Positions 4,819 through 24,811 of a DNA stretch of 24,811 nucleotides are shown here, piece after piece (the stretch's first letter is position 1; each line of letters starts with the position of its first letter). A program made the position numbers and the translations under genes. The notes beneath the pieces were generated by a model. The model saw only the letters and a program-made list of their open reading frames with translations. It was not told the origin of the DNA and ran no database searches. Source of the DNA: an uncultured Thermoleophilia bacterium (GTDB lineage Bacteria > Actinomycetota > Thermoleophilia > UBA2241); contig CAYMTC010000001.1 of the NCBI GenBank assembly GCA_964393265.1, forward strand, positions 1 through 24,811, given 5' to 3'.

Positions 4819-4842
4819 GTGAGCCGGCGTCCGCCGGCTCAC
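4819..4842. terminator. Hairpin between convergent genes
   Basis: GTGAGCCGGCG-TC-CGCCGGCTCAC; overlaps the stop codon of the RCC1 gene. Confidence 0.65.
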
Positions 4843-6695: not shown

Positions 6696-6797
6696 CGTTC
6701 TCCGCGCCACAATGGCACGCCCGACCGACATGACACCCTCCCCCCAAGAGGCCCACCATGGCTGTCCCATGGCACAGCACGCTCTCTTACCTATGTC

Positions 6798-7028: not shown

Positions 7029-7604
7029 TCAGTAGTTGTCGGCGTACAGCTCCTGGTACGCCTGCGGGTGCTTGCAGGCGGGACACACGCTCAGCGCCTT
7101 GGGCCCCTCGTGGACGTACCCGCACTTACGGCACATCCACATGCGCTTCTCTGGTCGCTCGAAGACCAGCCCGTGCTCGAGGTTCTCGAGCAGCTTGCGG
7201 TAGCGTCTCTCGTGCCACGACTCGGCCTTGGCTATCTGACGGAAGGTGTTGGCCACGTCCTTGAACCCCTCCTTCTCCGCCACATCGGCGAAGCCGGGGT
7301 ACAGGTCTGTCCACTCCTCGTGCTCGCCCTCAGCCGCTGCCAGCAGGTGCTGCGCCGTTCCCTCGATCTTGCCGGCCGGATAGCTCGCCGTGATCTCGAC
7401 CATGCCTCCTTCCAGATGCCTGAAGAACATCTTGGCATGCTGGAGCTCATGCTCGGCTGTCTCGAGGAAGATGGCGGCGATCTGCTCGTAGCCCTCCCTC
7501 GCCGCCTCCTTGGCGAAGTAGGTGTAGCGGTTGCGCGCCTGACTCTCGCCCGCAAACGCCTTGAGCAGGTTCTTCTCGGTCTGCGTACCCTTGATCCCCG
7601 CCAT
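7029..7604 (-). CDS. rbr: Rubrerythrin
   Basis: AFAGESQARNRY, ExxH di-iron motifs (ELQH, ESWH), C-terminal rubredoxin CRKC...CPAC; SD AAGGAG before ATG 7604. Confidence 0.96.
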   Translation of the reverse strand: MAGIKGTQTEKNLLKAFAGESQARNRYTYFAKEAAREGYEQIAAIFLETAEHELQHAKMFFRHLEGGMVEITASYPAGKIEGTAQHLLAAAEGEHEEWTDLYPGFADVAEKEGFKDVANTFRQIAKAESWHERRYRKLLENLEHGLVFERPEKRMWMCRKCGYVHEGPKALSVCPACKHPQAYQELYADNY

Positions 7605-7625
7605 GTCCAAGCTCCTTTCGAGAGA

Positions 7626-11409: not shown

Positions 11410-12603
11410 CTAGCCCGCGCTGGACGGGGCGCCAGCGAGGTAGTCGCCCGCAGAGCCGCCTACCACCAAACGGCAGTAGGGCGTAGCGGGCGCGCCCGCC
11501 GGCCGGGCAGACGGGCCCGTGTCGTGGACCGGCACGTCCGTTGGCGTGGCCACCAGGCCCGTACGCTGGGAGAGCGCGTCCGCGGGCGTGACTGGCGTGC
11601 GCGTACGCTGGGCCGGCGCGTCCGCGGAGTCGCTGGGCACGCGCGGTACGACTCGTTCGAGCGTACCGCGGGCAAGTGCGGTCTCGCCATCCCGAAGCTG
11701 TTCGGCGAACCGCCCCCTGAAGGAGACGATGTCGCGCACATGGTCCACGGGCTCGCCTGACAGGAACGACACCGAGTCGATCCCGTAGCGACACGGCGTG
11801 AACAACGCATCGGCAGCGTCGGTCACGCGGGCGCGGATCTCTGCCGGGCCCAGGTTCTCTACCGACTCCGCGCCGAACGCGGCTGCGGCCTCTGACCGGA
11901 GCTTCACGAAGCGCACGAACACCGAACGGTCTTGGTACCGGCACTCGTTCACCTTACGAGCCTGGAGGCGGGCGAACTCGCGGGCGTCTAGAGGCGTCTC
12001 GGAGGAGTGCGCCTCATGGATGACGCCCAGGTGCTCGGGTCGCGGACGTGTGATGGGGCCATCATCCTCATCCAGCAGTCTCCTCAGCGCCGCCGCGACA
12101 GTGCGGCAGTGCTTGTCGCCGTACACCACCACGTCGATGTCCGAGGAGTCGTGGTGCAGCCCCACGAGGATGGACCCGGTGACTCCCAGACACGACAGCG
12201 GGACCTGGGCAGCACGCGCGATCGTCGTGAGGAGACCGAGGGTCGCCCTCTCGAGATGGTCCGCACGACCGTGACGCAGGAGGCCTTCCAGCCGCAGTCG
12301 CGGATCGTGGACGCGACTCACCCGCTCCCAAGGAACGGACTGGACCGTGGCAGCCAGCTCAGCGTCGTACGCGAGGTACAGGTCTCCGTGCGGACGGAGC
12401 AGGGCCTCTTGATCCCGGAAGCCGTACACGCGGCGGAAGCGTGTACCACCGCGCACACGATCACCTGAGGGGTCGGGAAGGTACCGGAGGTAGGCGACGG
12501 TGCGGTGCGGAGGGTGGACGTGGCCCTTCACGGTGAAGACCAGTTGGTCCGCCGTCTCGAGAGCGAAGCCCTCGATAGCCATATCGACACTTGCCTCAGT
12601 CAT
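11410..12603 (-). CDS. Archaeal-type predicted nucleotidyltransferase (COG1665-like); start uncertain (12639, 12603 or 12582)
   Basis: F-x-VKG-x-x-HP...AYLRY N-terminal motif; Pol-beta-type GVTGSILVG...SDIDVVVYG; C-terminal FTPCRY...VSFRGRFAEQ...ARGTLERV. Confidence 0.75.
   Translation of the reverse strand: MTEASVDMAIEGFALETADQLVFTVKGHVHPPHRTVAYLRYLPDPSGDRVRGGTRFRRVYGFRDQEALLRPHGDLYLAYDAELAATVQSVPWERVSRVHDPRLRLEGLLRHGRADHLERATLGLLTTIARAAQVPLSCLGVTGSILVGLHHDSSDIDVVVYGDKHCRTVAAALRRLLDEDDGPITRPRPEHLGVIHEAHSSETPLDAREFARLQARKVNECRYQDRSVFVRFVKLRSEAAAAFGAESVENLGPAEIRARVTDAADALFTPCRYGIDSVSFLSGEPVDHVRDIVSFRGRFAEQLRDGETALARGTLERVVPRVPSDSADAPAQRTRTPVTPADALSQRTGLVATPTDVPVHDTGPSARPAGAPATPYCRLVVGGSAGDYLAGAPSSAG
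11479..11646 (-). repeat. In-frame degenerate 42-bp tandem repeat (4 x 14 aa) inside the nucleotidyltransferase
   Basis: PRVPSDSADAPAQR / TRTPVTPADALSQR / TGLVATPTDVPVHD / TGPSARPAGAPATP; DNA CGTACGCTGGG...GCGCGTCCGCGG recurs at 11560 and 11602 (42-bp period). Confidence 0.75.
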
Positions 12604-12682: not shown

Positions 12683-13393
12683 ATGCAGTTGCTGATCAGT
12701 CTGGTCCGCGAGGATGAGATCGAGCCCGCTGTCGCGGGCGGCGCCGACATCATCGACGTCAAGCAGCCTCGTGAAGGGTCTCTGGGCGCGGGCCTGCCGC
12801 ACGTCATTCGGCGCGCACGCGAGCTCACGCCGGCCCACATCCCCGTCAGCGCCGCCATCGGCGACATGCCCAATCTGCCAGGGACCGCCGCGCTGGCCGC
12901 CGCCGGCGCCGCGGACTGTGGCGTGCAGTACGTCAAGGTGGGGCTCATGGGCACGCGCACCGGCGCTGAAGCAGAGGTGTTGCTCAGCGAGGTGTGCCGC
13001 GCCGTGCATGACAAGGCGCCCACAGCCCGCGTCATGGCCACGGCTTACGCCGACGCTCGCTCCGTAGGCTCGCTGCCTCCCAGCGAGCTCCCTCAGGTCG
13101 CCTCCAAGGCGGGTGCGTACGGCTGCATGATCGACACCGCCCGCAAACAGGACGGTACGCTCCTCTCCATCATGCCGACCGCCCAGATAGCTCAGTTCAT
13201 CGCCGCCGCTCGCGAGCTCGGCCTGCTGTGCGCCCTGGCTGGGTCGCTGCATGCCGACGACATGCAGACGATCTGCGAGCTGCAGCCCGACGTCGTGGGC
13301 TTTCGCGGCGCCGCCTGTCGCGGCACCCGCGCGGACGGCACCGTGGACAGCGCGGCCGTCGCCCATCTCAAGCACCTCTGCGCCTGCCACTGA
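12683..13393 (+). CDS. mfnB: (5-formylfuran-3-yl)methyl phosphate synthase (4-HFC-P synthase; Orf22/DUF556)
   Basis: GGADIIDVKQPREGSLGA, VSAAIGD, YVKVGL, MIDTARK and LAGSL motifs. Confidence 0.93.
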   Translation: MQLLISLVREDEIEPAVAGGADIIDVKQPREGSLGAGLPHVIRRARELTPAHIPVSAAIGDMPNLPGTAALAAAGAADCGVQYVKVGLMGTRTGAEAEVLLSEVCRAVHDKAPTARVMATAYADARSVGSLPPSELPQVASKAGAYGCMIDTARKQDGTLLSIMPTAQIAQFIAAARELGLLCALAGSLHADDMQTICELQPDVVGFRGAACRGTRADGTVDSAAVAHLKHLCACH

Positions 13394-14027
13394 GCTCGGC
13401 GTCCCGCGCACTCAGTACCAGCTCCACAAGCTCGTGCGATGGCGCGCCCGCGACGATCCATGCGTCCACGGGCTGCGACTGCAACTGGTGCGCAAGGTAG
13501 GCGTCGATGACCCCCCGCCGCGCAAGACCGACCGCAGAATCTGCGTCCAGGCGCGCCGACGTGAGAGCCCCGCCCCTGGACGACGTCAGCGCGCTAGGGT
13601 GCTTGAGCAGCACCAGCCGCGACCTGGCGAGCGCCGCCACCCATGCTGCGATCGAGTCCGAGGTCACGTCCCAAGAGTGCGGCAGCGGGTCTTCGCGACG
13701 CAGAAGGTCGCCGGGCAGCAGGACTGGCACGCATCCCTTCTCGATGACCTCCTCGGCAGAGGCCAACTCGCGCACCACAGCACCTCGGACGAGGTCTGCC
13801 AACTCCAGACCGAATTGCTCCATGGCCGCCACGGCCATCCAGTGAGCCGCCTCGTCTGAGAAGCCGTCGCGCGCCTGCGCGGAGCGCACGGTGTCCGCGT
13901 ACACACCGCCGCCCGGCACCAGCAGCAGACCCCGCTGACCGCCCAATCGGCCCATCTCGCTGCACAGCGCACCAAGACCCGTGCCGGCGGCGAGGCTGCC
14001 CCCCACCTTGAGCACCATGTCGATCAT
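13368..14027 (-). CDS. mfnE: Amino-acid-kinase-family protein, furan phosphate kinase (Orf21)
   Basis: VLKVGGSL, VPGGGVYADTVR, AHWMAVAAMEQFG, LPHSWDVTSDSIAAWVA; ATG 14027 forms an ATGA overlap with the mfnF stop. Confidence 0.88.
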   Translation of the reverse strand: MIDMVLKVGGSLAAGTGLGALCSEMGRLGGQRGLLLVPGGGVYADTVRSAQARDGFSDEAAHWMAVAAMEQFGLELADLVRGAVVRELASAEEVIEKGCVPVLLPGDLLRREDPLPHSWDVTSDSIAAWVAALARSRLVLLKHPSALTSSRGGALTSARLDADSAVGLARRGVIDAYLAHQLQSQPVDAWIVAGAPSHELVELVLSARDAELSGRRRGA

Positions 14028-15076
14028 GCGTGTCCACCCAGGTCCTGGGCGAGCAGACACGCCACGGCCGCTGCGGGAAGAGCCACGGCCTGCGCCGTCT
14101 GCTCGCTCAGGACGGCGGCGGTCCGCATGTCCAGACGCCGAGCGGCCTCCTCCGCCAGAAAGGCTCCTGCGCCGGCTGGGACGACAGACCTGCTCGCGCC
14201 GTCGGGCAGGCGGGACAGGACCTGGAGCACGCCGTCACCGATGCGGTGCAGCTGACACTCCATGAGGTACCGCGCCATCTGCACGACGTCCGGCTCGGCG
14301 AGCATCTCAAGGTCGGCACAGACCAGCCGGGCCAGGCGGCCAGCCGCCTCACCAGGTGTGGTGCCGCGCCCGTCTGCCGTGGGACAGGTGTAGTCAGCAG
14401 CACTCAGCTTCCCGAGAAGGAGGTAGACGTCGGCCATGAGAGCGAAGTGCTCGGCCGCGACGCGTGTCATGCGTCCGCGCACGGGCACGACATCGGTGAG
14501 GGACTGTGGTTCGCTGCGCAGCACCCCGGTGTAGAGGAGCTCGCCAGAGCCGAGCCTGCCTGTGTCGTCGCGGCCCTCGTTCTGGACTCGGCCACCGCTG
14601 ATGGGGATGATGTCGGTGGTCGTGCTGCCCACATCCACCAGCAGGCAGTCGGGGTGATACTGCGCCACATACAGCGCCGACGCCAGCCAGTTGGTCGCGG
14701 CCAAGTCCAGCGGCCGCGCGCGCGCCACCTCGTTTGAGACGAACTCGCCGTTGATGCTGAGCGCCCGCGCATCTGCGCCGGGGAATGCCTCCCGCACCGC
14801 GTCCAGCACGGTGAGCACACCGTCTCGCTTGCAGGCGAACGCGTCCGAGAGCTCAGCGGTCATCGTCAACGCCATGACGTACGCATCGGCCAGCGCGAAG
14901 CGCTCAGCCACGTCGCGCAGCACGGCGGCCAGCCGTATCGGGTCGCGCCAGATCTCGAACGGCTCTACGGCGACCTGCACGACCTGGGCGGACCCATCCG
15001 TCCACACCACGTGAGCGGCCTTCGTATTGACCCCCCCTATGTCCCAACCCACCACATGGAGCGTGTCTGCTGTCAC
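14024..15076 (-). CDS. mfnF: Hydantoinase/oxoprolinase-like ASKHA protein of the H4MPT/MFR cluster (Orf9)
   Basis: GWDIGGVNTKAA, TMTAELSDAF, AATNWLASA, LVDVGSTTTDIIPI; GTGA overlap with the mfnD stop. Confidence 0.9.
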   Translation of the reverse strand: MTADTLHVVGWDIGGVNTKAAHVVWTDGSAQVVQVAVEPFEIWRDPIRLAAVLRDVAERFALADAYVMALTMTAELSDAFACKRDGVLTVLDAVREAFPGADARALSINGEFVSNEVARARPLDLAATNWLASALYVAQYHPDCLLVDVGSTTTDIIPISGGRVQNEGRDDTGRLGSGELLYTGVLRSEPQSLTDVVPVRGRMTRVAAEHFALMADVYLLLGKLSAADYTCPTADGRGTTPGEAAGRLARLVCADLEMLAEPDVVQMARYLMECQLHRIGDGVLQVLSRLPDGASRSVVPAGAGAFLAEEAARRLDMRTAAVLSEQTAQAVALPAAAVACLLAQDLGGHA

Positions 15077-16098
15077 CAGGGACCCGCCTTCTGGAACGGG
15101 ACGGGGTGCTGCGGCGAAGCGTCAGGCGGCAGCACCCCATCGACACAAGCGCGCCAGAGAGCCTCGCCGAGGTCGATGGACAACGCCTCACGAAGACCGA
15201 TGTAGGAGGTCGTGAGCCGTGGATTGACCTCTATGAGCTGGCATCCAGAGTCACTGACGACCATGTCGACACCTACGTAGCCACGCAGCCCCGGAAGCAG
15301 AGACACCGCCTGCCGGGCAAGTGAGAACGCCTCTTCGCGCCGCTCGTGTGCAATGCCGGCGACGCCGCCAGTGTACTCGCAGGGGATCCCGAAGTGCATG
15401 CGCTGCTCATTCATGCCCAACACCGAGGCTGCTCCATCGGCGACCAGCAGCGACACGCTGGCCGCGGTGCCCGCGACGTACTCCTGGACGAGCAGGTCCT
15501 CCCGCGATGGCTCGCAGACGTGCAGCGCCCGGGTCCACTCCGCAGCGTCTTGCACGAGACACACGCGCTCACACCCGGCGCCGGAGCGCGGTTTCACGAT
15601 GACTGGATAGGCGATCTCCTGAGCGACCGCGAGCACCTTGGGCGGCGCCACCAGTCGGGTAGCAGGTACCGGCAGGCCTGCGGCATGCAGAAGACCGTAC
15701 AACTGCCACTTGTCGGCAGCACGAGCCACAGCTCCCGGGGCACTGCCCAGCACGTGGACACCCGCCGCAGCCAGATCGCGGGTGACGCACTCAAGGACTC
15801 TCCCTCCCTCAGGCGCTATCAGGAGCGCAGCGCCGCAGGAACGGGCGACGTCGATCAGGCCTCCCGGATAGACTTGGGGCGAGAGCGGCACCACGCGGTC
15901 GGCTTGCACAGCTCCCAGGGGCAGCCGTCGGTCACAGGTCGTGACGATTGGCAGCCCGCCCCACGCGCGGAGGTCCTCTACCACTGCGCTCAGCAGCGCG
16001 AGGGCCTCCCCGCCTAGCGGCTGCGGCAGCTCCGGCTCTGGCCAGCCGCCGCCCACGACGTACTCGTGTACCAGCAGAGCCGACGGAGAGAGACGCAT
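15073..16098 (-). CDS. mfnD: ATP-grasp ligase, tyramine--L-glutamate ligase-like
   Basis: LLVHEYVVGGG, LIAPE, DKWQLY, KPRSGAGC, QEYVAGTAASVS, GYVGVD, IEVNPRLTTSYIGLR. Alternative starts 16107 and 16125. Confidence 0.8.
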   Translation of the reverse strand: MRLSPSALLVHEYVVGGGWPEPELPQPLGGEALALLSAVVEDLRAWGGLPIVTTCDRRLPLGAVQADRVVPLSPQVYPGGLIDVARSCGAALLIAPEGGRVLECVTRDLAAAGVHVLGSAPGAVARAADKWQLYGLLHAAGLPVPATRLVAPPKVLAVAQEIAYPVIVKPRSGAGCERVCLVQDAAEWTRALHVCEPSREDLLVQEYVAGTAASVSLLVADGAASVLGMNEQRMHFGIPCEYTGGVAGIAHERREEAFSLARQAVSLLPGLRGYVGVDMVVSDSGCQLIEVNPRLTTSYIGLREALSIDLGEALWRACVDGVLPPDASPQHPVPFQKAGPW

Positions 16099-16858
16099 GG
16101 AGTGCATCCCAGTCCTAGACCTCATGAACGGGGCCGTCGTCCACGGCCACCGCGGTGAGCGCCAAGGCTATCGGCCTGTGGTGAGTCACTTGTTGGACGG
16201 AGCCGACCCACTCGACGTCGCGACGGCGCTCCTGTCGGTGACCGGCACCAAGCGGCTGTACGTCGCCGACCTCGACGCGATCAGCCGGCGAGGCGACCAC
16301 TGCGCCGTGCTGCAGCGACTGAGAGACTCGCTCAGCGCTGACTTGCTGGTGGATGCCGGCAGCGGCCAGACGGAGGCGGCCAGACAGGTGCTCGACTCCG
16401 GAGCCACCTGCGTGGTAGTGGGCACCGAGACACTGCCGGACGTGGCCTCGTTGCAGCACATCCGCGAGCGTCTTGGCCACGAGAGAGTGCTGCTGAGTGT
16501 GGACACCACCACTCACGGTGTGCTGAGTCGCTGTGACGCACTGCGCGGGAGGTCGCCCTTGGACGTGCTGCGGCTGCTCGACGCGGCGTCGCTCGGCCAG
16601 GCCCTGGTCCTGCACCTCGACCGCGTGGGCACAGGCACAGGGCCGGCCCGCGACGACCTTCGTGCGGTACGGTCGGCCTACCCTCAGCTGCGCCTGGTGG
16701 CAGGCGGCGGCGTGCGCACGCCCGCTCACTTGGCTGAGCTGGCCGCGGCAGGGGTGGATGCCGTGCTGGTCGCCACCGCGCTGCACGAGGGCTGGATCAC
16801 GCGCGGCGACATCGAGCGCACAGCACGGGGCACCCCAGAGTTCACCAACGCGTCGTGA
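16097..16858 (+). CDS. HisA/HisF-related TIM-barrel protein (Orf17 family, furan cofactor biosynthesis)
   Basis: IPVLDLMNGAVVH...RQGYRPV, LYVADLDAI, LDRVGTGTG, VAGGGVR; GGAG 8 nt before ATG 16097. Confidence 0.88.
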   Translation: MECIPVLDLMNGAVVHGHRGERQGYRPVVSHLLDGADPLDVATALLSVTGTKRLYVADLDAISRRGDHCAVLQRLRDSLSADLLVDAGSGQTEAARQVLDSGATCVVVGTETLPDVASLQHIRERLGHERVLLSVDTTTHGVLSRCDALRGRSPLDVLRLLDAASLGQALVLHLDRVGTGTGPARDDLRAVRSAYPQLRLVAGGGVRTPAHLAELAAAGVDAVLVATALHEGWITRGDIERTARGTPEFTNAS

Positions 16859-17732
16859 GCTCTGGCACATCGGCCAGCATGCCCCCCTCTGTGAGAAAGA
16901 CGAACAGCGACGCGGCGATCAAGTCGGCCGTGGTGCCAGGGTTGAGCCGGTGTGCATCGTCCCGTAGCTCGTCGTCAAGACGCTGCACTTCTCGGCGGCC
17001 CAGCTCGGTGTGCAGGCCGCCTGCGTCGAGCACTTCGCAGGCACGCCGCGAGACGTGCGCAGCTTCACGTTCCCCCAGCTTGCGCGCGATGAGGGTGTCG
17101 GGCACCTCAGAGAGGATCTGCAGGAACGCCGTCGTGATGGCCACCGACAGTGAGTCGCCGCGCTGCCACGAGTGCGACAGGGCCTGGGCTCCGCACTGGA
17201 ACGTGATCTGGTAGTCGGTGAGGTACTCACGAGCGATGCTGTCCCTATCCCGTGCACTGCGCATGGCCTCGAGCAAGCTCACGTCCACTTGCGCGCCAGC
17301 GACGTCGTGCTCCTGGACCCGACCCAACCCGCCGGGCTGCGCCATCGCGATGGCCGCATAGGCGCTGCGGGCATCCTCCACCGACAGACCAGCCAGCACG
17401 CCACGCAGTGCGTCACGTAGGCCGTGCTGAGAAGCGTCCATGGCTGCGGCTTTGGCCAGCGGGGCCAGGAGCAGCACGATGCCAAGGTTGGTGTTCGTGG
17501 CAGACACCTGACGGGTGGCAGCCACGGCTTCTCGGATGGTCTGGCCCACGCCGCGCTCGCCGGCGGCGGCGAAGGGAGGCCCGATAGCCGCCGCGCTCGT
17601 CAGGAAGTCCAGGACACCGACGTCGGCGAACCGCGCGCGAGGTGACACGTTGCCAGGCTTGTGCGCCATGACCTCGAACTGACAGGAGAGCTGCACCGCG
17701 AGCGCGATCTCTTGCCCCTGCAGTGGCCTCAT
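16842..17732 (-). CDS. citG: CitG/triphosphoribosyl-dephospho-CoA synthase-like protein (Orf7 family)
   Basis: EVMAHKPGNV, TNTNLGIVLL, PDTLIARKLG, NPGTTADLIAA; ATGA overlap with the orf5 stop. Confidence 0.87.
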   Translation of the reverse strand: MRPLQGQEIALAVQLSCQFEVMAHKPGNVSPRARFADVGVLDFLTSAAAIGPPFAAAGERGVGQTIREAVAATRQVSATNTNLGIVLLLAPLAKAAAMDASQHGLRDALRGVLAGLSVEDARSAYAAIAMAQPGGLGRVQEHDVAGAQVDVSLLEAMRSARDRDSIAREYLTDYQITFQCGAQALSHSWQRGDSLSVAITTAFLQILSEVPDTLIARKLGEREAAHVSRRACEVLDAGGLHTELGRREVQRLDDELRDDAHRLNPGTTADLIAASLFVFLTEGGMLADVPELTTRW

Positions 17733-18601
17733 CCGTACACATCCACGACGTACTGGACCAGCTCCTCCGCAGCATCGATGCCCGTGGCGCCCTTGAGAGC
17801 TCGCCAGCCCGGTATGGAGTTCACCTCCAGGACACGGTAGACGTCGTCCTCGCCAGGAAGGATGTCCACGCCGGCGTACTCGGCGCCCACCGTACGGGCC
17901 GCCCGCAGGCTGAGGTCGCAGAGGTGGTCGTCCGGATCGAGCGGGATGCTGCGCGCCCCTTGCGCTGCATTGGTCTTCCAGCTGGTGCCGCGCCGTATCA
18001 TGGCGCCGACGACGCGCGGACCGATGACGAACACGCGGATGTCCTCGTCCCGATGGGGGACGAACGCCTGCAAGTAGTACACGTACCGTCCCAACTCCAG
18101 GGCCCGGAAGGCGCGATACGCGGAGTCCGGGTCCGAGACGCGGACCATTCCCTTGCCCTCGGAGCCGAAGAGGGGCTTGAGCACGACGTCGCCACCGAGC
18201 TCCTCGAACGCTGCCAGAGCGTCTTCGAAGCGCTCGACGACCACCACTGGCGGTGTGGGAAGGCCCTCGGCGGCCAGCAGAGCTGTCGTGTAGTACTTGT
18301 CAACGCCGCACTCGATGGACCTGGCCGAGTTGATCACCGGCGTGCCGTTGCGCTCGAGCTCCCGTAGCGCGTCCATGCGGAAGATGACCTGCTCTAGGGA
18401 CCCTGTGGGGATGGCCCGTACGAACACCACGTCCATCCCGTCGAGCGACACGCCGTCGGCGTGCAGGCTCGGCGTGTCGCCGGCCCGTGCGACAAGGCGT
18501 GTGACTGGTACGACCTCGGTGGCTATGCCTTGGGCGCGGAGCGCCCCGAGCAGGCTCTCAGTGTGCCAGCCGCCGTTCTGTCCGAGGATCGCGGCTTTCA
18601 A
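17729..18601 (-). CDS. RimK-family alpha-L-glutamate ligase (Orf5/MyfB or MptN-like)
   Basis: VRAIPTGSLEQVIFRMDAL, DKYYT, VLKPLFGSEGKG, DIRVFV, WKTNAAQG, LEVNSIPGW; TTGA overlap with the mch stop. Confidence 0.9.
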   Translation of the reverse strand: MKAAILGQNGGWHTESLLGALRAQGIATEVVPVTRLVARAGDTPSLHADGVSLDGMDVVFVRAIPTGSLEQVIFRMDALRELERNGTPVINSARSIECGVDKYYTTALLAAEGLPTPPVVVVERFEDALAAFEELGGDVVLKPLFGSEGKGMVRVSDPDSAYRAFRALELGRYVYYLQAFVPHRDEDIRVFVIGPRVVGAMIRRGTSWKTNAAQGARSIPLDPDDHLCDLSLRAARTVGAEYAGVDILPGEDDVYRVLEVNSIPGWRALKGATGIDAAEELVQYVVDVYG

Positions 18602-19569
18602 CTGAGCAGAGAACGCTCGAGGAGATCCGCGTCAACGACGCCCGCCTGGACCGTACGGCCGCTGAGACTACTGGTGAGGAAGACCTCCGCCGGGCTGAAC
18701 AGCAGGGGGTCGATCTTGTAGAAGTCGCCACCGTAACGTTCGAACAGCTCTTTGAAGGGCACACCATGGTCGCGGGACGCCGCTGCAGGCAGCCGGTCGA
18801 TGACCGACGCGATCGCGTCGTCCTCGGCCTGCACCGTGTACCAGGAGCGCCCGCCGTAGAGGACGGCGTCGTTGGTGCGTCCTATCGCCGACAGGTCGTC
18901 GCGCGCCACAGGCGCCATGGGACACACCCCGAAGCCGGAGCGCACTGTGCCGATGTCAAAGCCTACCTCGTGCATCTTGTGCAGACCTGTCTCCACGATG
19001 CGCGCGGCGATCTGTACCGACCCCACGAGGCTTGCTGTGGGAGCCACCAGCAGCAGCAGTGAGCCCGCCGGCACGCCGCACTTCTTAGCCACCCAGGCGA
19101 CCGCCTCGTCGGTGGGCAGCTGCCGCGACTCGAGCGTGAGCACCGCTCGCGAGGCCGTGTCCTTGTATCCCAGGTCCTCGAAGAGCTGCTCGCCACAGTA
19201 CAGAGCGCGGGCCGGCCCCGAGCCCATGGCGAAGTAGCCCGGCGTCGACTCACTGCGCGGGACGTCGATGGCCCAGCCCGCGTACTGCGACGCCATGCAC
19301 GCCAGTACAGGCTGTCGTACGTCCACCTCGACACCCGGTAGCACCAGCGCGTCGAGTCGGACCTCGCACAGCCGGACGTCACCCAGGCCGCCGAGGCACA
19401 CCTCCGCGAACAGACGGCCCGCTTCCAGTGAGCCCGGCACCTCGACGCCGGCGTCCACGACCGTGGCGCCGCTGGCGAGCTGGTGCACTTGTAGAGCCAA
19501 GGCTTCTGCATCCTCGACCATGCGGTCGACGATGACGGCTGCTCGATCATTCAGACTGATCACGGACAA
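18598..19569 (-). CDS. mch: Methenyl-H4MPT cyclohydrolase
   Basis: MGSGPARAL, LTLES, APTASLVGSVQIAARIVETGLHK, GRTNDAVLYGG, KIDPLLFSPA; TTG 19569 (or GTG 19563) after GAGGGGAG. The ORF-track extension to 19776 is not protein-like. Confidence 0.96.
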   Translation of the reverse strand: MSVISLNDRAAVIVDRMVEDAEALALQVHQLASGATVVDAGVEVPGSLEAGRLFAEVCLGGLGDVRLCEVRLDALVLPGVEVDVRQPVLACMASQYAGWAIDVPRSESTPGYFAMGSGPARALYCGEQLFEDLGYKDTASRAVLTLESRQLPTDEAVAWVAKKCGVPAGSLLLLVAPTASLVGSVQIAARIVETGLHKMHEVGFDIGTVRSGFGVCPMAPVARDDLSAIGRTNDAVLYGGRSWYTVQAEDDAIASVIDRLPAAASRDHGVPFKELFERYGGDFYKIDPLLFSPAEVFLTSSLSGRTVQAGVVDADLLERSLLS

Positions 19570-19813
19570 GCATCTCCCCTCTGCGGCCTGTGCCGCGGTC
19601 GTCCGCAGAGCACTCGAGGTCGCCCTAAGGACCCTCCGCCAGGCCGTCGCATTCCAGGTCGGCTCAGTGCCGGCACGAAGCGGCGCACGATGGCTGGAGG
19701 CCATTGACGTGCGCACCGCCAGACCGGTGACATGGTGACAGGGCCGCCAGCGACGCGTTGATGGCGCGCACATCACCGCGCACGCGTGGCCAGCACACCC
19801 TGCGCCTCGCTCG

Positions 19814-20698
19814 CTAGCTGAGCAGCGCGTGGAGCGGGAACTGGTACTGCCCCAGCTCCCCGCCGTAGTTGCCCGCCGAGATGCGGGTGACTCCGGGGCG
19901 ACATGCGGCTCTCATGCCCACGCGCATGGCATCTCCGACCGCATCCTCGGTGAGGCCGTCGACCACGATCTCGAGCACGGCGTTCTCATCGGGGCCGAGC
20001 GGCGAGTCCACCTGCCCCTTGAGCGTGGGGCAGTAGAACGTGTTGCTGGACACGTGCTGACCCTTGTACATCGACGAGACCTTACTCCCGCTGCGCACGA
20101 CGCCTCCCGGGAAGGGCATGATGACGCCTGGGACACTGCGCATGGCCTCCACAGCCGCCTCGGCAGCGCCCAGAGCCTCAGCGATCCCGGTGGCCATGAT
20201 GAAGAAGTTGCCGCCGCCCACTGCCTTACACACCCCGAAGCTCTCGTCGATGACGAACTCCCCGTCCATCACCGGCACGCGCCACAGGCGCCTGCCGTCG
20301 ACCAGCTTGCTGCGCTGGAAGCCGTCGCCGAAGTACCGGAGCTTGCCGCCGACCTTGAGACGCTCGTCGGCCTGCAGACCGTTGTAGCAGGCCGACGTGG
20401 CCGAGGTCATGATGCTCTGCCCGATGCGCGCCAGCAGCTGCTGCTCCATGCTCTTGCGAGAGGTGGTGAAGATGAGGACGGCCACGCCCGGCCTGCCGTC
20501 TGGCGTCGCCTCGTCGGGGGGCAGCGTGTTGACACCGGCCTCGCAGCCGCAGCCGATGATGGACGTGGCAAAGCCAGTCGCCGAGGCCGCCGCGGTCTGA
20601 GCCCACGAGAGAGTGTCTGCTGTGACCACGAGCCGGGCACCCCACATGCCAAAGGCTTCCGCAAAGGTGTCTACGATCTCCACACCGTCGATCTTCAT
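19814..20698 (-). CDS. ftr: Formylmethanofuran--H4MPT N-formyltransferase (Ftr/FhcD)
   Basis: GVEIVDTFAEAF, GFATSIIGCGCEAG, TPDGRPG, RYFGDGFQ, PVMDGEF, GGGNF, FPGGVVRSGSK, YCPTL, EIVVDG, ISAGNYGG. Confidence 0.96.
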   Translation of the reverse strand: MKIDGVEIVDTFAEAFGMWGARLVVTADTLSWAQTAAASATGFATSIIGCGCEAGVNTLPPDEATPDGRPGVAVLIFTTSRKSMEQQLLARIGQSIMTSATSACYNGLQADERLKVGGKLRYFGDGFQRSKLVDGRRLWRVPVMDGEFVIDESFGVCKAVGGGNFFIMATGIAEALGAAEAAVEAMRSVPGVIMPFPGGVVRSGSKVSSMYKGQHVSSNTFYCPTLKGQVDSPLGPDENAVLEIVVDGLTEDAVGDAMRVGMRAACRPGVTRISAGNYGGELGQYQFPLHALLS

Positions 20699-22161
20699 CA
20701 GGTCCCGGCTCCTTTCCCAGAGACTGTGCCGTCGTACGCCGTCACGCCGCCCGCTTTGGCTGCCTGAGCAGGGTCTGTGTCCGCGGCACTACTCGATACT
20801 TCTCGTGGCGCATCGTCAAGGTACCCCCAACGGAGACCCGACTCTTGCGTGTACCTCTTGCCAAGAAGGACGGCAAGCGCGGCCCGCTCCAGTTCGCGCC
20901 CCATGTAGAACGCGTGCCCTGGGTCGGAGATCTCCAGCTGCTCGAAGAGACGCTGGGGGTCTGTACCACTGACGAATGTGTCACGATTGAACACGTACAC
21001 ACGCTGCGCGTCGGCGAAGATGCGGTAGTGCCGGTCCCGTACCCTGCTCTGCATGTCGCGGAGTTCGACCTCCGTGTACGGACGAAACGGCACATCCTTG
21101 AGCGCTATCAGGCGGTCATCGATGGACTTGGGCAGGACGCTGTTGGTGCGCGCGTAGTACATGAGCCTGCGCGCGACGTCGAGTTCCCGTACGGCGCCGC
21201 GACACCAGCTGATCACCTCGGTCGTAAGGACGTAGTCGATCTGCAGCTCGGTGAACACGCCGGCGATGACAGCGTTCACGCCATGGCTGTCGGCGTCGAG
21301 GAGCTCGGTGAGGTTGCCCACGCCCATGAGCATCTCCGCCGTAGGGTACCGGCGACGCACCTCCTGGAAACGGACCACCGACTCGGTGAAGCCCATGCCC
21401 AGCGGATCGAGGATGGGATCGAGGACGTAGGGCGCACCAAGCTCCGCCACCGTCTGCACGTTCCGCTCGAGCGAGTCGACGCCCTCACCGAAGTCCGGGA
21501 CCACCACGACCTTGCAGTGCAGGTGGGGAACGACATCGATGTTCTCGGAGTTGACGCTCAACACGAGGTCTACCCCGGCGTCGTCCGCCTCCCTGATCGT
21601 GTCACTATGGAACGTGTCGATACTGACGACGAAGCCGCGCTCCTTGAGTGCCGCGACCGCGTCTCCGACGCCCACGAACGGCTCCATAGGCGGACATCCG
21701 AGGTCGATGATGTCGGCGCCCTGCGCGCGGTAGCGCTCGGCCTCCGCGAGGATGCTTTCGAGAGACAGGTGCCACGCCTCGACGATCTCGGCAAGCAGCT
21801 TGATCTTGTACGCGCCGTAGCCGTGGAGCTGGGGCTCCTGGCCGTAGAACCGCGGCAGGTCGCGGAGGTCCTTTGGACCGCGTACCACGGGGACGCCGAC
21901 CTGTCGCTCGATGACGGACAGATCGCCACGACAGAGACCCGGGATCACGACCAGCTCGCAGCCGCGCGCGTCGTGCAGACGCCGCGCTATCCACTCCGTG
22001 CGCATGAGCGCAGCGACCGAGCCATTGAGGACGGCTGTCTCGTATGGGAAGTCCGGGGCCAGGCGTTCGAGCGTGAGCTGGAGCGCCGCAGCAGCCAGCC
22101 GGCCGGTGACGAAGAGCGTCTTTGGCACTGCCTCGTCGCTTTGGCTCAAGGGGCCAGCCAC
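20698..22161 (-). CDS. Dihydropteroate-synthase-like protein of methanopterin biosynthesis (Orf20; DUF6513 + pterin-binding barrel + C-terminal DUF4346-like)
   Basis: LFVTGRLA, VAALM, GPKDLRDLP, GADIIDLGC, LDPILDP, MLMGVGNLTELLDADS, TTEV, HAFYMGRELERA; TGATG coupling to ftr. Alternative start GTG 22128. Confidence 0.88.
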   Translation of the reverse strand: MAGPLSQSDEAVPKTLFVTGRLAAAALQLTLERLAPDFPYETAVLNGSVAALMRTEWIARRLHDARGCELVVIPGLCRGDLSVIERQVGVPVVRGPKDLRDLPRFYGQEPQLHGYGAYKIKLLAEIVEAWHLSLESILAEAERYRAQGADIIDLGCPPMEPFVGVGDAVAALKERGFVVSIDTFHSDTIREADDAGVDLVLSVNSENIDVVPHLHCKVVVVPDFGEGVDSLERNVQTVAELGAPYVLDPILDPLGMGFTESVVRFQEVRRRYPTAEMLMGVGNLTELLDADSHGVNAVIAGVFTELQIDYVLTTEVISWCRGAVRELDVARRLMYYARTNSVLPKSIDDRLIALKDVPFRPYTEVELRDMQSRVRDRHYRIFADAQRVYVFNRDTFVSGTDPQRLFEQLEISDPGHAFYMGRELERAALAVLLGKRYTQESGLRWGYLDDAPREVSSSAADTDPAQAAKAGGVTAYDGTVSGKGAGT

Positions 22162-23123
22162 TCTTCCAGCGTGATGTGCCGCTCTACCGGCGCCCCGCCG
22201 GCGAGCTCGTGACGGATGTCGCCGAGGGTGCCGTAGCGCTCGGCGAAGGCGTTGTGGTCGTGGATGCCTTCGAAGTTCTCCTGACGAGCGATGATGAAGT
22301 CTTCGTCAGGGAGGTTGGGGTAGGCAGCCACGGCAAGGCGCAGCATCTCGCGCACAGCGTCCTCGACGAAGCGCGGATTGCGGTGCGCCTTGTCCACCAC
22401 GTAGAGCTCGTCCGGACGCTTGAGCAGCTCGTAGATCTCCGAGCTCATCGACTGCTCGACGAGCTTGACGAGGTCCTCGGCGCGGAGCGACTCGCGCGAG
22501 CCCACTAGCAACGTGCCGCGTCCTCGCTGGTTATGCGAGGCCACAGGCACGACACTGAGGATGCAGCTGATCTGGTCCTCTGTGAACCCCTCTTGCAGCA
22601 GCTGCTCGCGGGACTGCGCCCGTACCATGTCCTGAGCGCAAGGACACACCGTGAGCCCGTTGACCTCGACACCGACCACCAGCCGTGTGGCATGGGGAGT
22701 GGCGGCAGCGATGCCGACGAGCGTGTAGAGCTGCTCGGTGGGACGATCCGTCACGGGAGTGCGGCGCACCAGAGGGGATTGGGTCTTGATCCGTACCTCG
22801 GCGCGATACGCCGCCTGCGTAGCCACGATCTGCTCTGCCATGCGGCTGGCCAGCGACTCGATGTCGGGGAACGGCCTGCGCGTGAAACCCTCGGCAAGCC
22901 CTTCCACCACCTCGCTGAAACGCGACATGTGGACACCGGCATACTCGGGACTGAGATCAGCGAAGAGATCGATGCTGGCGTAGAAGAGCTGAGGCTTGTT
23001 GCCGGCATTGATCGAGATGATGCGACGTAGATCGGTGACGCCCGCGCGGCTCAGTGCCACCGGCACAGCCGGCCGCGCATTCTGTGTGTCTCTGAGAGTC
23101 ATCTGCGGAGTGCTCTGTTCCAT
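22146..23123 (-). CDS. mptA: GTP cyclohydrolase, archaeal MptA type (FolE2/MptA family)
   Basis: GVHMSRF, CPCAQ followed by a long helical insert, then SHNQRGRG, YELLKRPDE, NPRFVEDAVR, ENFEGIHDHNAFA. Confidence 0.88.
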   Translation of the reverse strand: MEQSTPQMTLRDTQNARPAVPVALSRAGVTDLRRIISINAGNKPQLFYASIDLFADLSPEYAGVHMSRFSEVVEGLAEGFTRRPFPDIESLASRMAEQIVATQAAYRAEVRIKTQSPLVRRTPVTDRPTEQLYTLVGIAAATPHATRLVVGVEVNGLTVCPCAQDMVRAQSREQLLQEGFTEDQISCILSVVPVASHNQRGRGTLLVGSRESLRAEDLVKLVEQSMSSEIYELLKRPDELYVVDKAHRNPRFVEDAVREMLRLAVAAYPNLPDEDFIIARQENFEGIHDHNAFAERYGTLGDIRHELAGGAPVERHITLEEWLAP

Positions 23124-23130
23124 CGCCCGC

Positions 23131-23613
23131 CTACTTGCCTGTGCTCGCGAGGGCCTCGGTACACACGAGGTGACCGTAAGCGACCGCGCAGCTGCCGAAC
23201 AACAGATCCATGTCAGTGCGCCGTATCACGGCTTTCGCTAAGTCGGACTGCCGGGACTCGGTGGGTACGATATCTCTGCCTGACTCGATGGCCACGCCGC
23301 TGTTCATCCACCCGTCCCGCGTCGTACAGCACCGGCTGTATCGGGGGAAGCCGTGCGAAGGCGTGGGGGCCTTTGACCCGGCGTCGCTCTGGTCGACAGA
23401 GACCGAGATCTTGGCGTCCGCATTGACAGCCTCCGCCACTTTGGCGGCTTCCACCAGGGTAGTGTAGCCCATCTTGGAGTGCGCGCACTCCGTGATCGGC
23501 GACCCGGCTACGGTGCCACCTGTGGCCGAGGCCAGACCGTGCTCACGGCCGCTGTCCAGGTCGACACGCTGCTCACGACCGCGCCCGGCGACCGGCCTGA
23601 GCCGATGGCTCAC
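23131..23613 (-). CDS. Hypothetical protein, 160 aa, no recognised family
   Basis: AGGAGGT SD (23625-23619) 5 nt before GTG 23613; stop lies 7 nt before the mptA ATG; fills the operon slot exactly. Confidence 0.55.
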   Translation of the reverse strand: MSHRLRPVAGRGREQRVDLDSGREHGLASATGGTVAGSPITECAHSKMGYTTLVEAAKVAEAVNADAKISVSVDQSDAGSKAPTPSHGFPRYSRCCTTRDGWMNSGVAIESGRDIVPTESRQSDLAKAVIRRTDMDLLFGSCAVAYGHLVCTEALASTGK

Positions 23614-24784
23614 GAGCCACCTCCTCTCGCTGCTCGATCTCGGCGTAGACAGCCGCCACCTGGTCAAAGAGGTCGCGCATACATGCCGCGCGGCCGTCGC
23701 CATGGGCGAGGACCGTGCAGACGGGATGGCCGGGCTTGAAGATCTGCGCCGGCCGCGGTACGTCACGCAGGCCACGGAGCAGCCAGTGGTCCGTGTCCGG
23801 CGCGGCACTCACCCGTCGCGCAAAGACGACACCCTTAGCGTGACAGCCAGCCGCTGGCCAGGCCGGAACCGCCTCGGGAAGCCTGCCCTCCAGCGCCTCC
23901 AGGTGGAGCTTGAAGACGTTCACCCCGTAGGCGCGTTCTATGAGCTCCAGGGAGGCTGAAGGCCGAGGGTTGACCTCGACCAGGTGAGCCTCGACGTCGC
24001 CATCCGACAGCGGCGTGACGACCAGGTCGAGACCGTTGAGCCCCACCAGCCCGAACCGCGCGGTAAGGAGCTGTGCCATGTGTGCCACGCGCTCGTAGAG
24101 TGCGTCGCCAGCGGCGGCCACGGTCGGCGTGGGACCCAGCGCGAGCGGCAAGACATTGCCACACCACGCGAAGCCGCTCGCGCCCAGATCGTGCCGGCCC
24201 AGGAGCTGTTCCGTGAGGCCAAGCAGCACGCAGTCGCGTCCGTCGGCGACAAAGGCCGCGGAGGCCGCCACGCCCTCTATACGCGCCTGCAAGAAGTGGT
24301 CGCCGTCGATGGGCTCCCCACGCCACGGTCGTACTCCGTGGCCGCCGCCACTGCGGATCCGCTTGCGCAGCCAGACACGTCCGTCAGCGGCCTGCGACTC
24401 CTCGCCCGAGAGGAGGGTGGGCGGGTAGGCGATCCCCACCTCGCCGCAGAAGCGCCGCAGGACACGCTGATCGCGCACCTGTTCGAGCGTCGCCGCGGCG
24501 TTGCCCCGCACCCTGCGGTGCTGGGCAAGTCGCCGCACGGCTTGCGGATGGTTCTCAAGATTGGCGCCGTAGACGACTGCGTCAGCAGGGATGCGCAGCG
24601 CTGCCTCGACCAACCCGTCGGCTGTCATGGGCAACGCAAGGTCTCGAGGCAGCGCGTAGCTCTCTGCCACGCGTTCCTGATCACGGTCGCCGAAGAAGTC
24701 GGCGGCGGCGGCACGTACCCCGCCTGCCGCCGCCGACTCGGCGATCATCCGCGTGCTGACGCCGATGAGAAGGACGCGGTCTAC
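23573..24784 (-). CDS. ATP-grasp carboligase of the OrfY/MyfA (COG2232-like) family
   Basis: RVLLIGVSTR...DFFGDRD, GANLENHP, KRIRSGGGHGV, LQARIEG..AS, GLNGLD, VEVNPRPSASLE, GHPVCTV. The conserved N-terminus lies upstream of ATG 24748; the only SD-supported position is GTA 24784. Confidence 0.85.
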   Translation of the reverse strand, partial: VDRVLLIGVSTRMIAESAAAGGVRAAAADFFGDRDQERVAESYALPRDLALPMTADGLVEAALRIPADAVVYGANLENHPQAVRRLAQHRRVRGNAAATLEQVRDQRVLRRFCGEVGIAYPPTLLSGEESQAADGRVWLRKRIRSGGGHGVRPWRGEPIDGDHFLQARIEGVAASAAFVADGRDCVLLGLTEQLLGRHDLGASGFAWCGNVLPLALGPTPTVAAAGDALYERVAHMAQLLTARFGLVGLNGLDLVVTPLSDGDVEAHLVEVNPRPSASLELIERAYGVNVFKLHLEALEGRLPEAVPAWPAAGCHAKGVVFARRVSAAPDTDHWLLRGLRDVPRPAQIFKPGHPVCTVLAHGDGRAACMRDLFDQVAAVYAEIEQREEVAREPSAQAGRRARS

Positions 24785-24811
24785 TGTGCAAGCTCCTTCG
24801 CCAGCTCGAAG
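24781..24811 (-). CDS. C-terminal 9 residues (FELAKELAQ*) of a truncated upstream gene, possibly MtdA/MtdB methylene-H4MPT dehydrogenase
   Basis: Resembles the Mtd C-terminal helix (xYKLAKEMA-like), and mtdB-orfY adjacency is the usual order in methylotroph clusters; only 31 nt are visible. Confidence 0.35.
   Translation of the reverse strand, partial: FELAKELAQ

Follow-up and report, generated by a model that had tools for sequence, protein, structure and literature searches.

A Thermoleophilia tetrahydromethanopterin and methanofuran gene island that has lost its formyl-methanofuran dehydrogenase genes

Introduction

The stretch of DNA considered here (the window) comprises 24,811 nucleotides, positions 1 to 24,811 of contig CAYMTC010000001.1 in assembly GCA_964393265.1 from an uncultured Thermoleophilia bacterium, and its right half carries an island of genes for making and using the one-carbon (C1) cofactors tetrahydromethanopterin (H4MPT) and methanofuran. 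The H4MPT/methanofuran pathway is central to the debate on how methanogenesis and methylotrophy evolved, and I know of no experimental study of this island in Actinomycetota. An original prediction, made from the letters of the DNA alone, had described the region as a C1 cluster of mixed archaeal and methylotroph character in a probable anaerobe; what it overlooked, and what comparison with relatives brought out, is that the genes for formyl-methanofuran dehydrogenase (fwdDBA and fwdC) and a DUF1464 gene have been deleted from this copy. In this article, I will discuss the traces left by that loss, the signs that the remaining genes are still constrained, and the likelihood that the missing last step is supplied from elsewhere in the genome.

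The island is of a kind already known. The original prediction had rightly cautioned that such genes occur in Actinomycetota, and they have been catalogued in Actinomycetes, Synergistetes and Chloroflexi (Chistoserdova, 2016; PMC5020050), with mfnD and fwdD being kept in non-proteobacterial bacteria (PMC5020050), while mch and fwdAB were reported for a metagenome-assembled genome (MAG) of the Thermoleophilia order UBA2241 recovered from an anoxic hypolimnion (McDaniel, 2020; PMC7438021). Taken alone, the island would be one more member of a family present in dozens of public MAGs; new here is an architecture without Fwd and without DUF1464 in which the rest has remained constrained.

Genes of the island

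Gene identities come from an open reading frame listing together with Pfam and NCBIfam profile searches of the proteins of the window and of L083, an overlapping Logan contig from another sequencing run that is 99.9% identical to the window over 2845 bp and reaches 2.5 kb further; the two provide the approximately 27 kb of sequence examined for this lineage. The GC content varies little along the window (64-71%), and an Rfam scan of the window returned no matches. As first delimited (12683-24811), the island holds 12 intact genes and the 3' end of a gene for an MtdA/B-type dehydrogenase, and all 13 genes named in the original prediction were recovered where it had placed them, with strong profile matches (Table 1).

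Table 1. Features of the window, with position, strand and the match or reading that identifies each
Feature	Position	Strand	Evidence
mfnB, (5-formylfuran-3-yl)methyl phosphate synthase (orf22 of M. extorquens)	12683-13393	+	PF04476 250 bits, full length
mfnE-like amino-acid-kinase-family gene (orf21)	13368-14027	-	PF00696 E 4e-8; 219-aa gene call in L001
mfnF-like (orf9), hydantoinase-A-fold protein of H4MPT-linked pathway	14024-15076	-	TIGR03123 315 bits, cut-off 244
mfnD-like ATP-grasp ligase (tyramine-glutamate ligase family; orf1 of M. flagellatus)	15073-16107	-	PF02655 131 bits; preATP-grasp_3
orf17, HisA/HisF-family protein	16124-16858	+	PF00977 125 bits; TIGR00734 115 bits, under cut-off 180
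orf7, CitG-like triphosphoribosyl-transferase-family protein	16842-17732	-	PF01874 237 bits
orf5/MyfB, MptN-like RimK-family glutamate ligase	17729-18601	-	TIGR00768 190 bits, cut-off 143
mch, methenyl-H4MPT cyclohydrolase	18598-19563	-	TIGR03120 392 bits, cut-off 229; 321-aa gene call in L001
Spacer left by fwdC loss	19556-19813	-	last ~8-38 FwdC codons recognizable; relatives have a 285-aa FwdC here
ftr/fhcD, formylmethanofuran:H4MPT formyltransferase	19814-20698	-	TIGR03119 404 bits, cut-off 293; NF002554 419 bits
orf20, dihydropteroate-synthase-like	20698-22149	-	Pfam DUF6513, Pterin_bind, DUF4346; TIGR00284 198 bits, under cut-off 257
mptA, GTP cyclohydrolase IV-type, pterin of H4MPT	22146-23123	-	TIGR00294 284 bits, cut-off 220
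Decayed fwdA remnant	23134-23604	-	FwdA residues ~82-120 and 280-363 fused in one frame; E 7.9e-12
orfY/MyfA-like ATP-grasp glutamate ligase	frame 23573-24784; first canonical start ATG at 24748	-	PF02655 50 bits; 49-60% identity to orthologues
mtdB 3' end, MtdA/B-family NAD(P)-dependent methylene-H4MPT dehydrogenase	24781-24811	-	last 31 nt encode ...FELAKELAQ-stop (10 codons)
Nucleotidyltransferase-like gene, Pol-beta superfamily	11410-12582	-	weak PF01909 match in 27/27 homologues; adjoins mfnB in ~17 Thermoleophilia loci
Rubrerythrin gene	7029-7610	-	NF045767 286 bits; ferritin-like and rubredoxin-like domains
Divergent transketolase-family gene, running off left end	1-1932	+	best NCBIfam transketolase model 96 bits, cut-off 488
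RCC1-repeat protein (643 aa)	4839-6770	-	six RCC1 repeats, C-terminal Big_13

The tight packing that had been described stands for six junctions, where stop and start codons overlap by 1-4 bp (read from the sequence as TGATG, TTGA, ATGA, GTGA, ATGA and TTGA), but two others are spacers, of 449 bp between orfY and mptA and 250 bp between ftr and mch, which hold a FwdA fragment and a FwdC tail, respectively. Similarly, the content assigned to 12683-24811 was right but the unit is longer and extends past both ends, to the nucleotidyltransferase-like gene on the left and through mtdB, a DUF447 gene and mptG on the right. The "probable mtd end" indeed belongs to an MtdA/B-type gene, since L083 completes it to a 290-amino-acid Mpt_N protein whose best solved relative is Methylorubrum extorquens MtdA (260 bits) and which is 75% identical to its orthologue in the related locus L005; upstream of mtdB, L083 carries the DUF447 gene and then a nearly complete mptG (TIGR00144, 150 bits, cut-off 113.5).

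Several of the furan and pterin proteins match their families and fall under the thresholds of the narrower models. MfnB, which is 63-69% identical to Thermoleophilia orthologues, scores 241 bits against the equivalog NF002575 (cut-off 304), and the orf5 product reaches 247 bits against the MptN model NF040720 (cut-off 350). Against the archaeal models, the MfnE-like product scores 79 bits with NF040622, far under the cut-off of 300, the MfnD-like product 96 bits with NF040722 (cut-off 400), and the MfnF-like product, which passes the bacterial model TIGR03123, 216 bits with NF040623 (cut-off 520). These three proteins are homologues of the archaeal enzymes and presumably share their function. 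The archaeal-type N-terminus that had been ascribed to Ftr did not hold up, since the protein scores 297 bits against M. extorquens FhcD (PDB 6S6Y chain D) and 295 bits against Methanopyrus kandleri Ftr and so lies no nearer to the one than to the other. Neither mfnA (tyrosine decarboxylase) nor mfnC (transaminase) was found in the 27 kb.

Loss of the formyl-methanofuran dehydrogenase genes

Approximately 17 Thermoleophilia loci with enough sequence share the gene order mptG-(DUF447)-mtdB-orfY-fwdD-fwdB-fwdA-mptA-orf20-DUF1464-ftr-fwdC-mch-orf5-orf7-orf17-mfnD-mfnF-mfnE-mfnB followed by the nucleotidyltransferase-like gene. Set against this order, the window is without exactly five genes that its relatives carry, namely fwdD-fwdB-fwdA between orfY and mptA, DUF1464 between orf20 and ftr, and fwdC between ftr and mch, and no gene of an FhcABC or FwdABC complex was found in the window or L083 beyond a fragment of FwdA and the tail of FwdC.

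Both of these leftovers lie where the complete genes are found in relatives. A FwdA profile built from relatives picks out two collinear pieces in the orfY-mptA spacer (tblastn E 1.4e-8 and 7e-4; amino-acid identity 34-36%), and the junction is found also in L083 and L084. The trace of fwdC is fainter: a tblastn match to FwdC residues 246-283 is weak and short (E 0.03), and the motif GEMLVRDQ, which corresponds to the FwdC C-terminus and overlaps the mch start as it does in relatives, is weak as well in a search of the spacer only (E 0.011), with its position exact. At the third junction the stop of orf20 overlaps the start of ftr (TGATG) precisely where relatives have DUF1464. Profile and sequence searches of the window detected no remnant of FwdB or DUF1464, and a match to the FwdD N-terminus (E 4e-6) was rejected as a remnant because it lies on the 3' end of orfY, a stretch that orfY and fwdD share in relatives as well.

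The presence of remnants means that the genes were deleted, rather than that the lineage preserves an ancestral state that never had fwd, and the assemblies of two further sequencing runs reproduce all three junctions at 99.9% identity, which excludes assembly error. Five genes have thus been lost from this lineage's island at three junctions.

At the site of the deleted DUF1464, it can also be seen that the C-terminus of orf20 (20698-20810) is about 30 residues longer than in the L005 orthologue (483-487 versus 456 amino acids), its low-complexity tail reaching the ftr start with no detectable similarity to DUF1464.

Host and the fluidity of the island in its clade

A scan for Ftr, in a collection holding one genome per GTDB species, returned 28 species-level MAG loci at 68-77% identity, of which 27 are labeled Thermoleophilia, Actinomycetota or Actinomycetes and come from peat, permafrost, lakes, soils and the subsurface; the remaining one is a short contig labeled Deltaproteobacteria. 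The next tier, at 55-61%, consists of Acidobacteriota, Synergistota and Methylococcales, followed by archaea at 48-51%. The flanking gene for an M42 peptidase, unrelated to C1 metabolism, has its best named matches in Thermoleophilia and Actinobacteria MAGs (60-70% identity), and the assignment of the host to a Thermoleophilia/Actinomycetota lineage, as originally predicted, holds on these protein similarities. Within that lineage the window stands apart: among 5.8 billion proteins none exceeds 78% identity to its Ftr, its lineage is absent at species level from the collection scanned, look-ups of its exact proteins gave only fragments of this same contig, and in a simple neighbor-joining tree on p-distances of 12 concatenated proteins it forms the deepest ingroup branch.

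These comparisons also bear on whether the locus could be an assembly artefact, a chimera, or a set of genes that a methylotroph, planctomycete or archaeon has recently passed on by horizontal transfer. Misjoins are possible in high-GC metagenome contigs, and in a related genome of 4.6 Mb the island lies away from the M42 gene, which there sits in a uvrC-whiA-gap neighborhood, so that positional orthology could not be argued through this flank. However, the three independent assemblies agree across every junction, the GC content is even, and every island gene is nearest to Thermoleophilia orthologues that stand in the same order, with the Ftr proteins of Methylococcales and archaea well below them, all of which makes an artefact or an import barely credible.

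The island occurs in 28 or more species-level genomes, and well over 100 metagenomic protein clusters represent it as well. The Fwd proteins of relatives match their models well (subunit A, TIGR03121, 698 bits; B, TIGR03129, 520; C, TIGR03122, 272) and are accompanied by a FwdD-like subunit, and their FwdB conserves both the N-terminal iron-sulfur cysteines and the Cys-His of the motif SVCHGP, with a score of 403 bits to the tungsten FwdB of Methanothermobacter wolfeii versus 52 bits to M. extorquens FhcB. From these motifs and scores, the ancestral enzyme of the clade is to be regarded as an archaeal tungsten/molybdenum dehydrogenase and not as the hydrolase type of methylotrophs. The hybrid system with archaeal-type parts that had been proposed therefore fits the clade, with its FwdD and archaeal-type FwdB, but those are the parts deleted here, and the MfnD and Ftr that had been cited in its favor are not distinctive.

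Gene content also varies from lineage to lineage. L014 has an island without fwdDBA that keeps fwdC and DUF1464; L013 has, between orf5 and orf7, an additional set of fwdC-fwdB-fwdD in inverted orientation; L026 and L027 have no mptA at the usual place; and in the Solirubrobacterales loci L059 and L077 the B subunit is Fhc-like, without the iron-sulfur and Cys-His residues. Upstream of mptG, L014 (32-2715) encodes a DUF2193 protein ("conserved in archaea"), a MIP-family channel, an NADPH-dependent FMN reductase and a PF02441 flavoprotein, the last of which resembles AfpA/DmrB and is a candidate for dihydromethanopterin reductase. The contig of the window stops short of this region. In JAHJSA010000052 (L086/L085, 11380-18550), the island is followed by hdrC-, hdrB-, hdrA- and mvhD/FlpD-like genes, two iron-sulfur proteins and an NAD-binding/DHODB iron-sulfur protein, a set reminiscent of an electron-bifurcating complex that might feed a Fwd-type enzyme. 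This adjacency was rejected as an anaerobic signature of the whole clade; among the loci compared it is limited to the L009 lineage, and it is not seen in the window.

Constraint on the retained genes

By three measures, the genes left behind are not drifting. Relative to the outgroups Thermovirgaceae L038 and Acidobacteriota L037, the 12 retained proteins show the same degree of similarity as their counterparts in Fwd-containing relatives (for Ftr, 58% in the window versus 56-59% in relatives), so that no acceleration is seen in any of the genes. Synonymous divergence is saturated against all relatives, as is codon position 3 of the intact genes when compared to L005 (identity 0.45-0.54), whereas at codon positions 1 and 2 identity to L005 is 0.70-0.86 in intact genes and only 0.50-0.68 in the fwdA remnant. 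In a simulation, 5% neutral substitution produced approximately 11 premature stops over the 3793 codons of the 12 genes, and none is observed. Together, the normal relative rates, the codon-position pattern and the stop-codon simulation establish, as far as sequence comparison goes, that the retained genes are still under constraint; and because the fwdA remnant has decayed at codon positions 1 and 2, the deletion is old relative to the divergence, with its neighbors protected by selection in the meantime.

Proposed function

I consider it likely that the region is a copy of the Thermoleophilia-clade H4MPT/methanofuran island in which the fwd genes have been deleted, the remaining pathway is still working, and the last step is supplied from elsewhere. 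MtdA/B enzymes use NAD(P) to oxidize methylene-H4MPT, Mch opens methenyl-H4MPT to give formyl-H4MPT, and Ftr moves the formyl group to methanofuran or methylofuran; the MtdA/B-type, Mch and Ftr proteins of this island would accordingly interconvert methylene-, methenyl- and formyl-H4MPT and formyl-methanofuran, in what may be a route for the oxidation or detoxification of formaldehyde or other C1 units. A furan cofactor of the methanofuran or methylofuran type would be made by mfnB, the mfnE-, mfnF- and mfnD-like genes, orf17 and the glutamate ligases orfY/MyfA and orf5/MyfB, and part of H4MPT synthesis would be covered by mptA, the dihydropteroate-synthase-like orf20 and the CitG-like orf7, together with mptG and the DUF447 gene beyond the window. 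MptA and MptG probably act in H4MPT synthesis, as orf20 and orf7 may also do. MfnB/E/F/D, Orf17, MyfA (OrfY) and MyfB (Orf5) are the proteins that make the furan cofactor and its glutamate tail (Hemmann, 2021; PMC8141765), and orf17 is essential for methylofuran synthesis in M. extorquens (PMC8141765). In relatives, Fwd would convert formyl-methanofuran to CO2, reversibly, and here the conversion of formyl-methanofuran to CO2 or formate would fall to genes elsewhere in the genome.

Two considerations speak for such a supply. The Fhc complex of methylotrophs carries methylofuran as a prosthetic group (Hemmann, 2019; PMC6926001), and since both cofactor synthesis and Ftr have been maintained, an enzyme that converts formyl-methanofuran would be expected somewhere else in the genome; moreover, the fluidity of the clade, with fwd or mptA genes absent from their usual place or present in a second set in L014, L013, L026 and L027, supports this expectation.

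Several observations weigh against this reading. No fwd or fhc gene occurs across the 27 kb, which leaves the supply from elsewhere as a deduction, and fwdC has gone too, a pattern no less compatible with loss of the whole set than with its relocation. The synthesis of the cofactor without an Fhc partner is hard to rationalize, and no Fae-family match turned up among the scanned proteins of the window and L083, although these were general scans and no search was aimed at Fae. In addition, orfY has lost its original start codon: the ancestral GTG has become GAC (GTAGTG in L005, GTAGAC in the window), there is no in-frame ATG, GTG or TTG between the upstream stop and Met12, and yet the sequence RVLLIGVSTR before Met12 is still conserved. 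Finally, of the 10 strain-level single-nucleotide polymorphisms, 5 synonymous and 5 non-synonymous, the 3 that fall in orfY are all non-synonymous, which hints at erosion of methylofuran tailoring. Ten such polymorphisms are too few to carry weight, and they were set aside as a test of present-day selection. In the start region of orfY (24748-24784 on the minus strand; 2516-2552 in L083), an ATC at 24766-24764 is the sole near-cognate codon at which translation might begin.

The same observations on orfY, taken with the deletion of five island genes, would suit a decaying relic in which the terminal enzyme has been lost, the pathway no longer functions and the leftover genes are turning into pseudogenes, and there is a precedent in the partial clusters of Nitrosococcus oceani and N. 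watsonii, which have been read as a recent loss of function (PMC5020050). However, the absence of premature stops, the lack of acceleration in any of the 12 genes and the erosion of the FwdA remnant next to uneroded neighbors indicate that selection persisted long after the deletion; orfY itself keeps an intact frame and a normal evolutionary rate but has no canonical start ahead of its conserved first strand. On this evidence of constraint, I regard the relic as unlikely. The original prediction had reserved that outcome for a genome lacking Fwd/Fhc, MptG and Mtd; at the level of the locus (window and L083) Fwd/Fhc is indeed lacking, and mptG and the MtdA/B-type gene are present on L083.

It had further been proposed that the genes form a hybrid archaeal/methylotroph system for anaerobic oxidation of methyl or formaldehyde units, or the H4MPT methyl branch of a Wood-Ljungdahl-type pathway, with the rubrerythrin gene as an anaerobe marker. 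The archaeal-type FwdDBA and FwdC of relatives would agree with this, as would the hdrCBA-mvhD-like genes right after the island in one related lineage, and related Thermoleophilia from the anoxic hypolimnion and from permafrost carry hgcA (PMC7438021). In the window itself, however, the fwd genes are gone, the sole dehydrogenase in the window and L083 is the NAD(P)-linked MtdA/B type, with no coenzyme F420-dependent Mtd or Hmd, profile scans of the 27 kb found no mer, F420-synthesis, carbon monoxide dehydrogenase/acetyl-CoA synthase (CODH/ACS) or methyltransferase genes, and the L009 lineage is the only one, among the loci compared, in which hdr-like genes adjoin the island. The rubrerythrin gene is genuine, but rubrerythrin is not specific to strict anaerobes and thus only weakly indicates an oxygen-sensitive lifestyle. 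The NAD(P)-type dehydrogenase, together with the absence of mer, F420, CODH/ACS and fwd genes from the 27 kb, leaves anaerobic methyl oxidation or an H4MPT methyl branch unsupported by the window and makes such a system quite improbable here.

If the retained pathway is working, as is probable, the genes for its final step either lie in another part of the genome or do not exist at all. That full furan and H4MPT biosynthesis, Mtd, Mch and Ftr should all be under purifying selection in a genome with no Fwd/Fhc anywhere is rather improbable, but it would imply an undescribed fate for formyl-methanofuran, whether conversion by a non-homologous hydrolase or dehydrogenase or use as a formyl donor. 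Either way, the lineage amounts to a natural "knock-out" in which the dehydrogenase genes are gone from the island and the cofactor and C1 genes are still constrained, and it bears on the question of whether Ftr and methanofuran are useful without Fwd/Fhc or whether the enzyme has merely moved.

Neighboring genes

The nucleotidyltransferase-like protein encoded next to mfnB has the invariant residues G133/G136/S137 and S147-D148-x-D150, and its gene also directly follows the CitG-like orf7 in other lineages, in L087 (8001-9080) and L088 (8001-9125), one a Chloroflexota-labeled contig and one another JGI contig, with the order fwdDBA-ftr-fwdC-mch-orf5-orf7-nucleotidyltransferase. An AlphaFold2 model (pLDDT 83) compared to the PDB with Foldseek gave nothing below E 0.03, with only a weak signal of a Pol-beta nucleotidyltransferase core. 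By analogy to the CitG/CitX and MdcB/MdcG pairs, one might speculate that the protein carries out a step of H4MPT side-chain assembly to which no gene has been assigned; a link to MdcG was discarded, being seen in 1 of 27 homologues and not significant (E 0.06).

Further to the left, the RCC1-repeat protein has a putative N-terminal hydrophobic, signal-like segment, judged from its translation, and appears unrelated to the island, and the left end of the window is occupied by the divergent transketolase-family gene.

Comparison with known systems

The nearest counterparts are the islands of other Thermoleophilia MAGs, such as PKYM01000351 (palsa_645), CAWCSR010000003 (MFD04428.bin.2.40) and JAHJSA010000052, which agree with the window in how the shared genes are ordered and oriented, from mptG through to the nucleotidyltransferase-like gene, in their similarly high GC content and in host class, and which show 43-77% amino-acid identity gene by gene; they differ in having fwdDBA, DUF1464 and fwdC where the window has a FwdA fragment and a FwdC tail only.

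The "archaeal-like" C1 island of M. extorquens and other proteobacterial methylotrophs (PMC6926001; PMC8141765) shares MtdA/B, Mch, FhcD/Ftr, orf5, orfY, orf17, orf7, orf9, orf20, orf21 and orf22 with the window, and orfY, mch and orf5 are contiguous in gammaproteobacterial loci too. In contrast to that island, MfnD and MptA are present here, with no fae seen in the general scans of the window and L083, and in contrast to the Fhc system the locus is without FhcA, FhcB and FhcC, the ancestor of its clade having had a cysteine/iron-sulfur Fwd with FwdD rather than a hydrolase-type Fhc.

The archaeal Fwd-Ftr-Mch-Mtd/Hmd-Mer module, as in M. wolfeii with its FwdABCDFG (PDB 5T5I), has in common with the window Ftr, Mch, MptA and homologues of MfnB, MfnD, MfnE and MfnF, and in relatives the likeness extends to FwdB, in which the catalytic Cys-His is aligned; the window differs from this module in being without Fwd, F420-dependent Mtd, Hmd and Mer and in having an NAD(P)-dependent MtdA/B and glutamate ligases of the methylofuran type. 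By combining an archaeal-type tungsten/molybdenum formyl-methanofuran dehydrogenase with an NAD(P)-linked MtdA/B-type enzyme and methylofuran-type glutamate ligases, the clade stands as an intermediate between the archaeal and proteobacterial systems.

Lastly, the truncated H4MPT clusters of N. oceani and N. watsonii (PMC5020050) resemble the window in that key genes are missing while close relatives keep the full set. These clusters were read as having recently lost their function, whereas the genes retained in the window evolve at a normal rate and have kept their frames intact long after the deletion.

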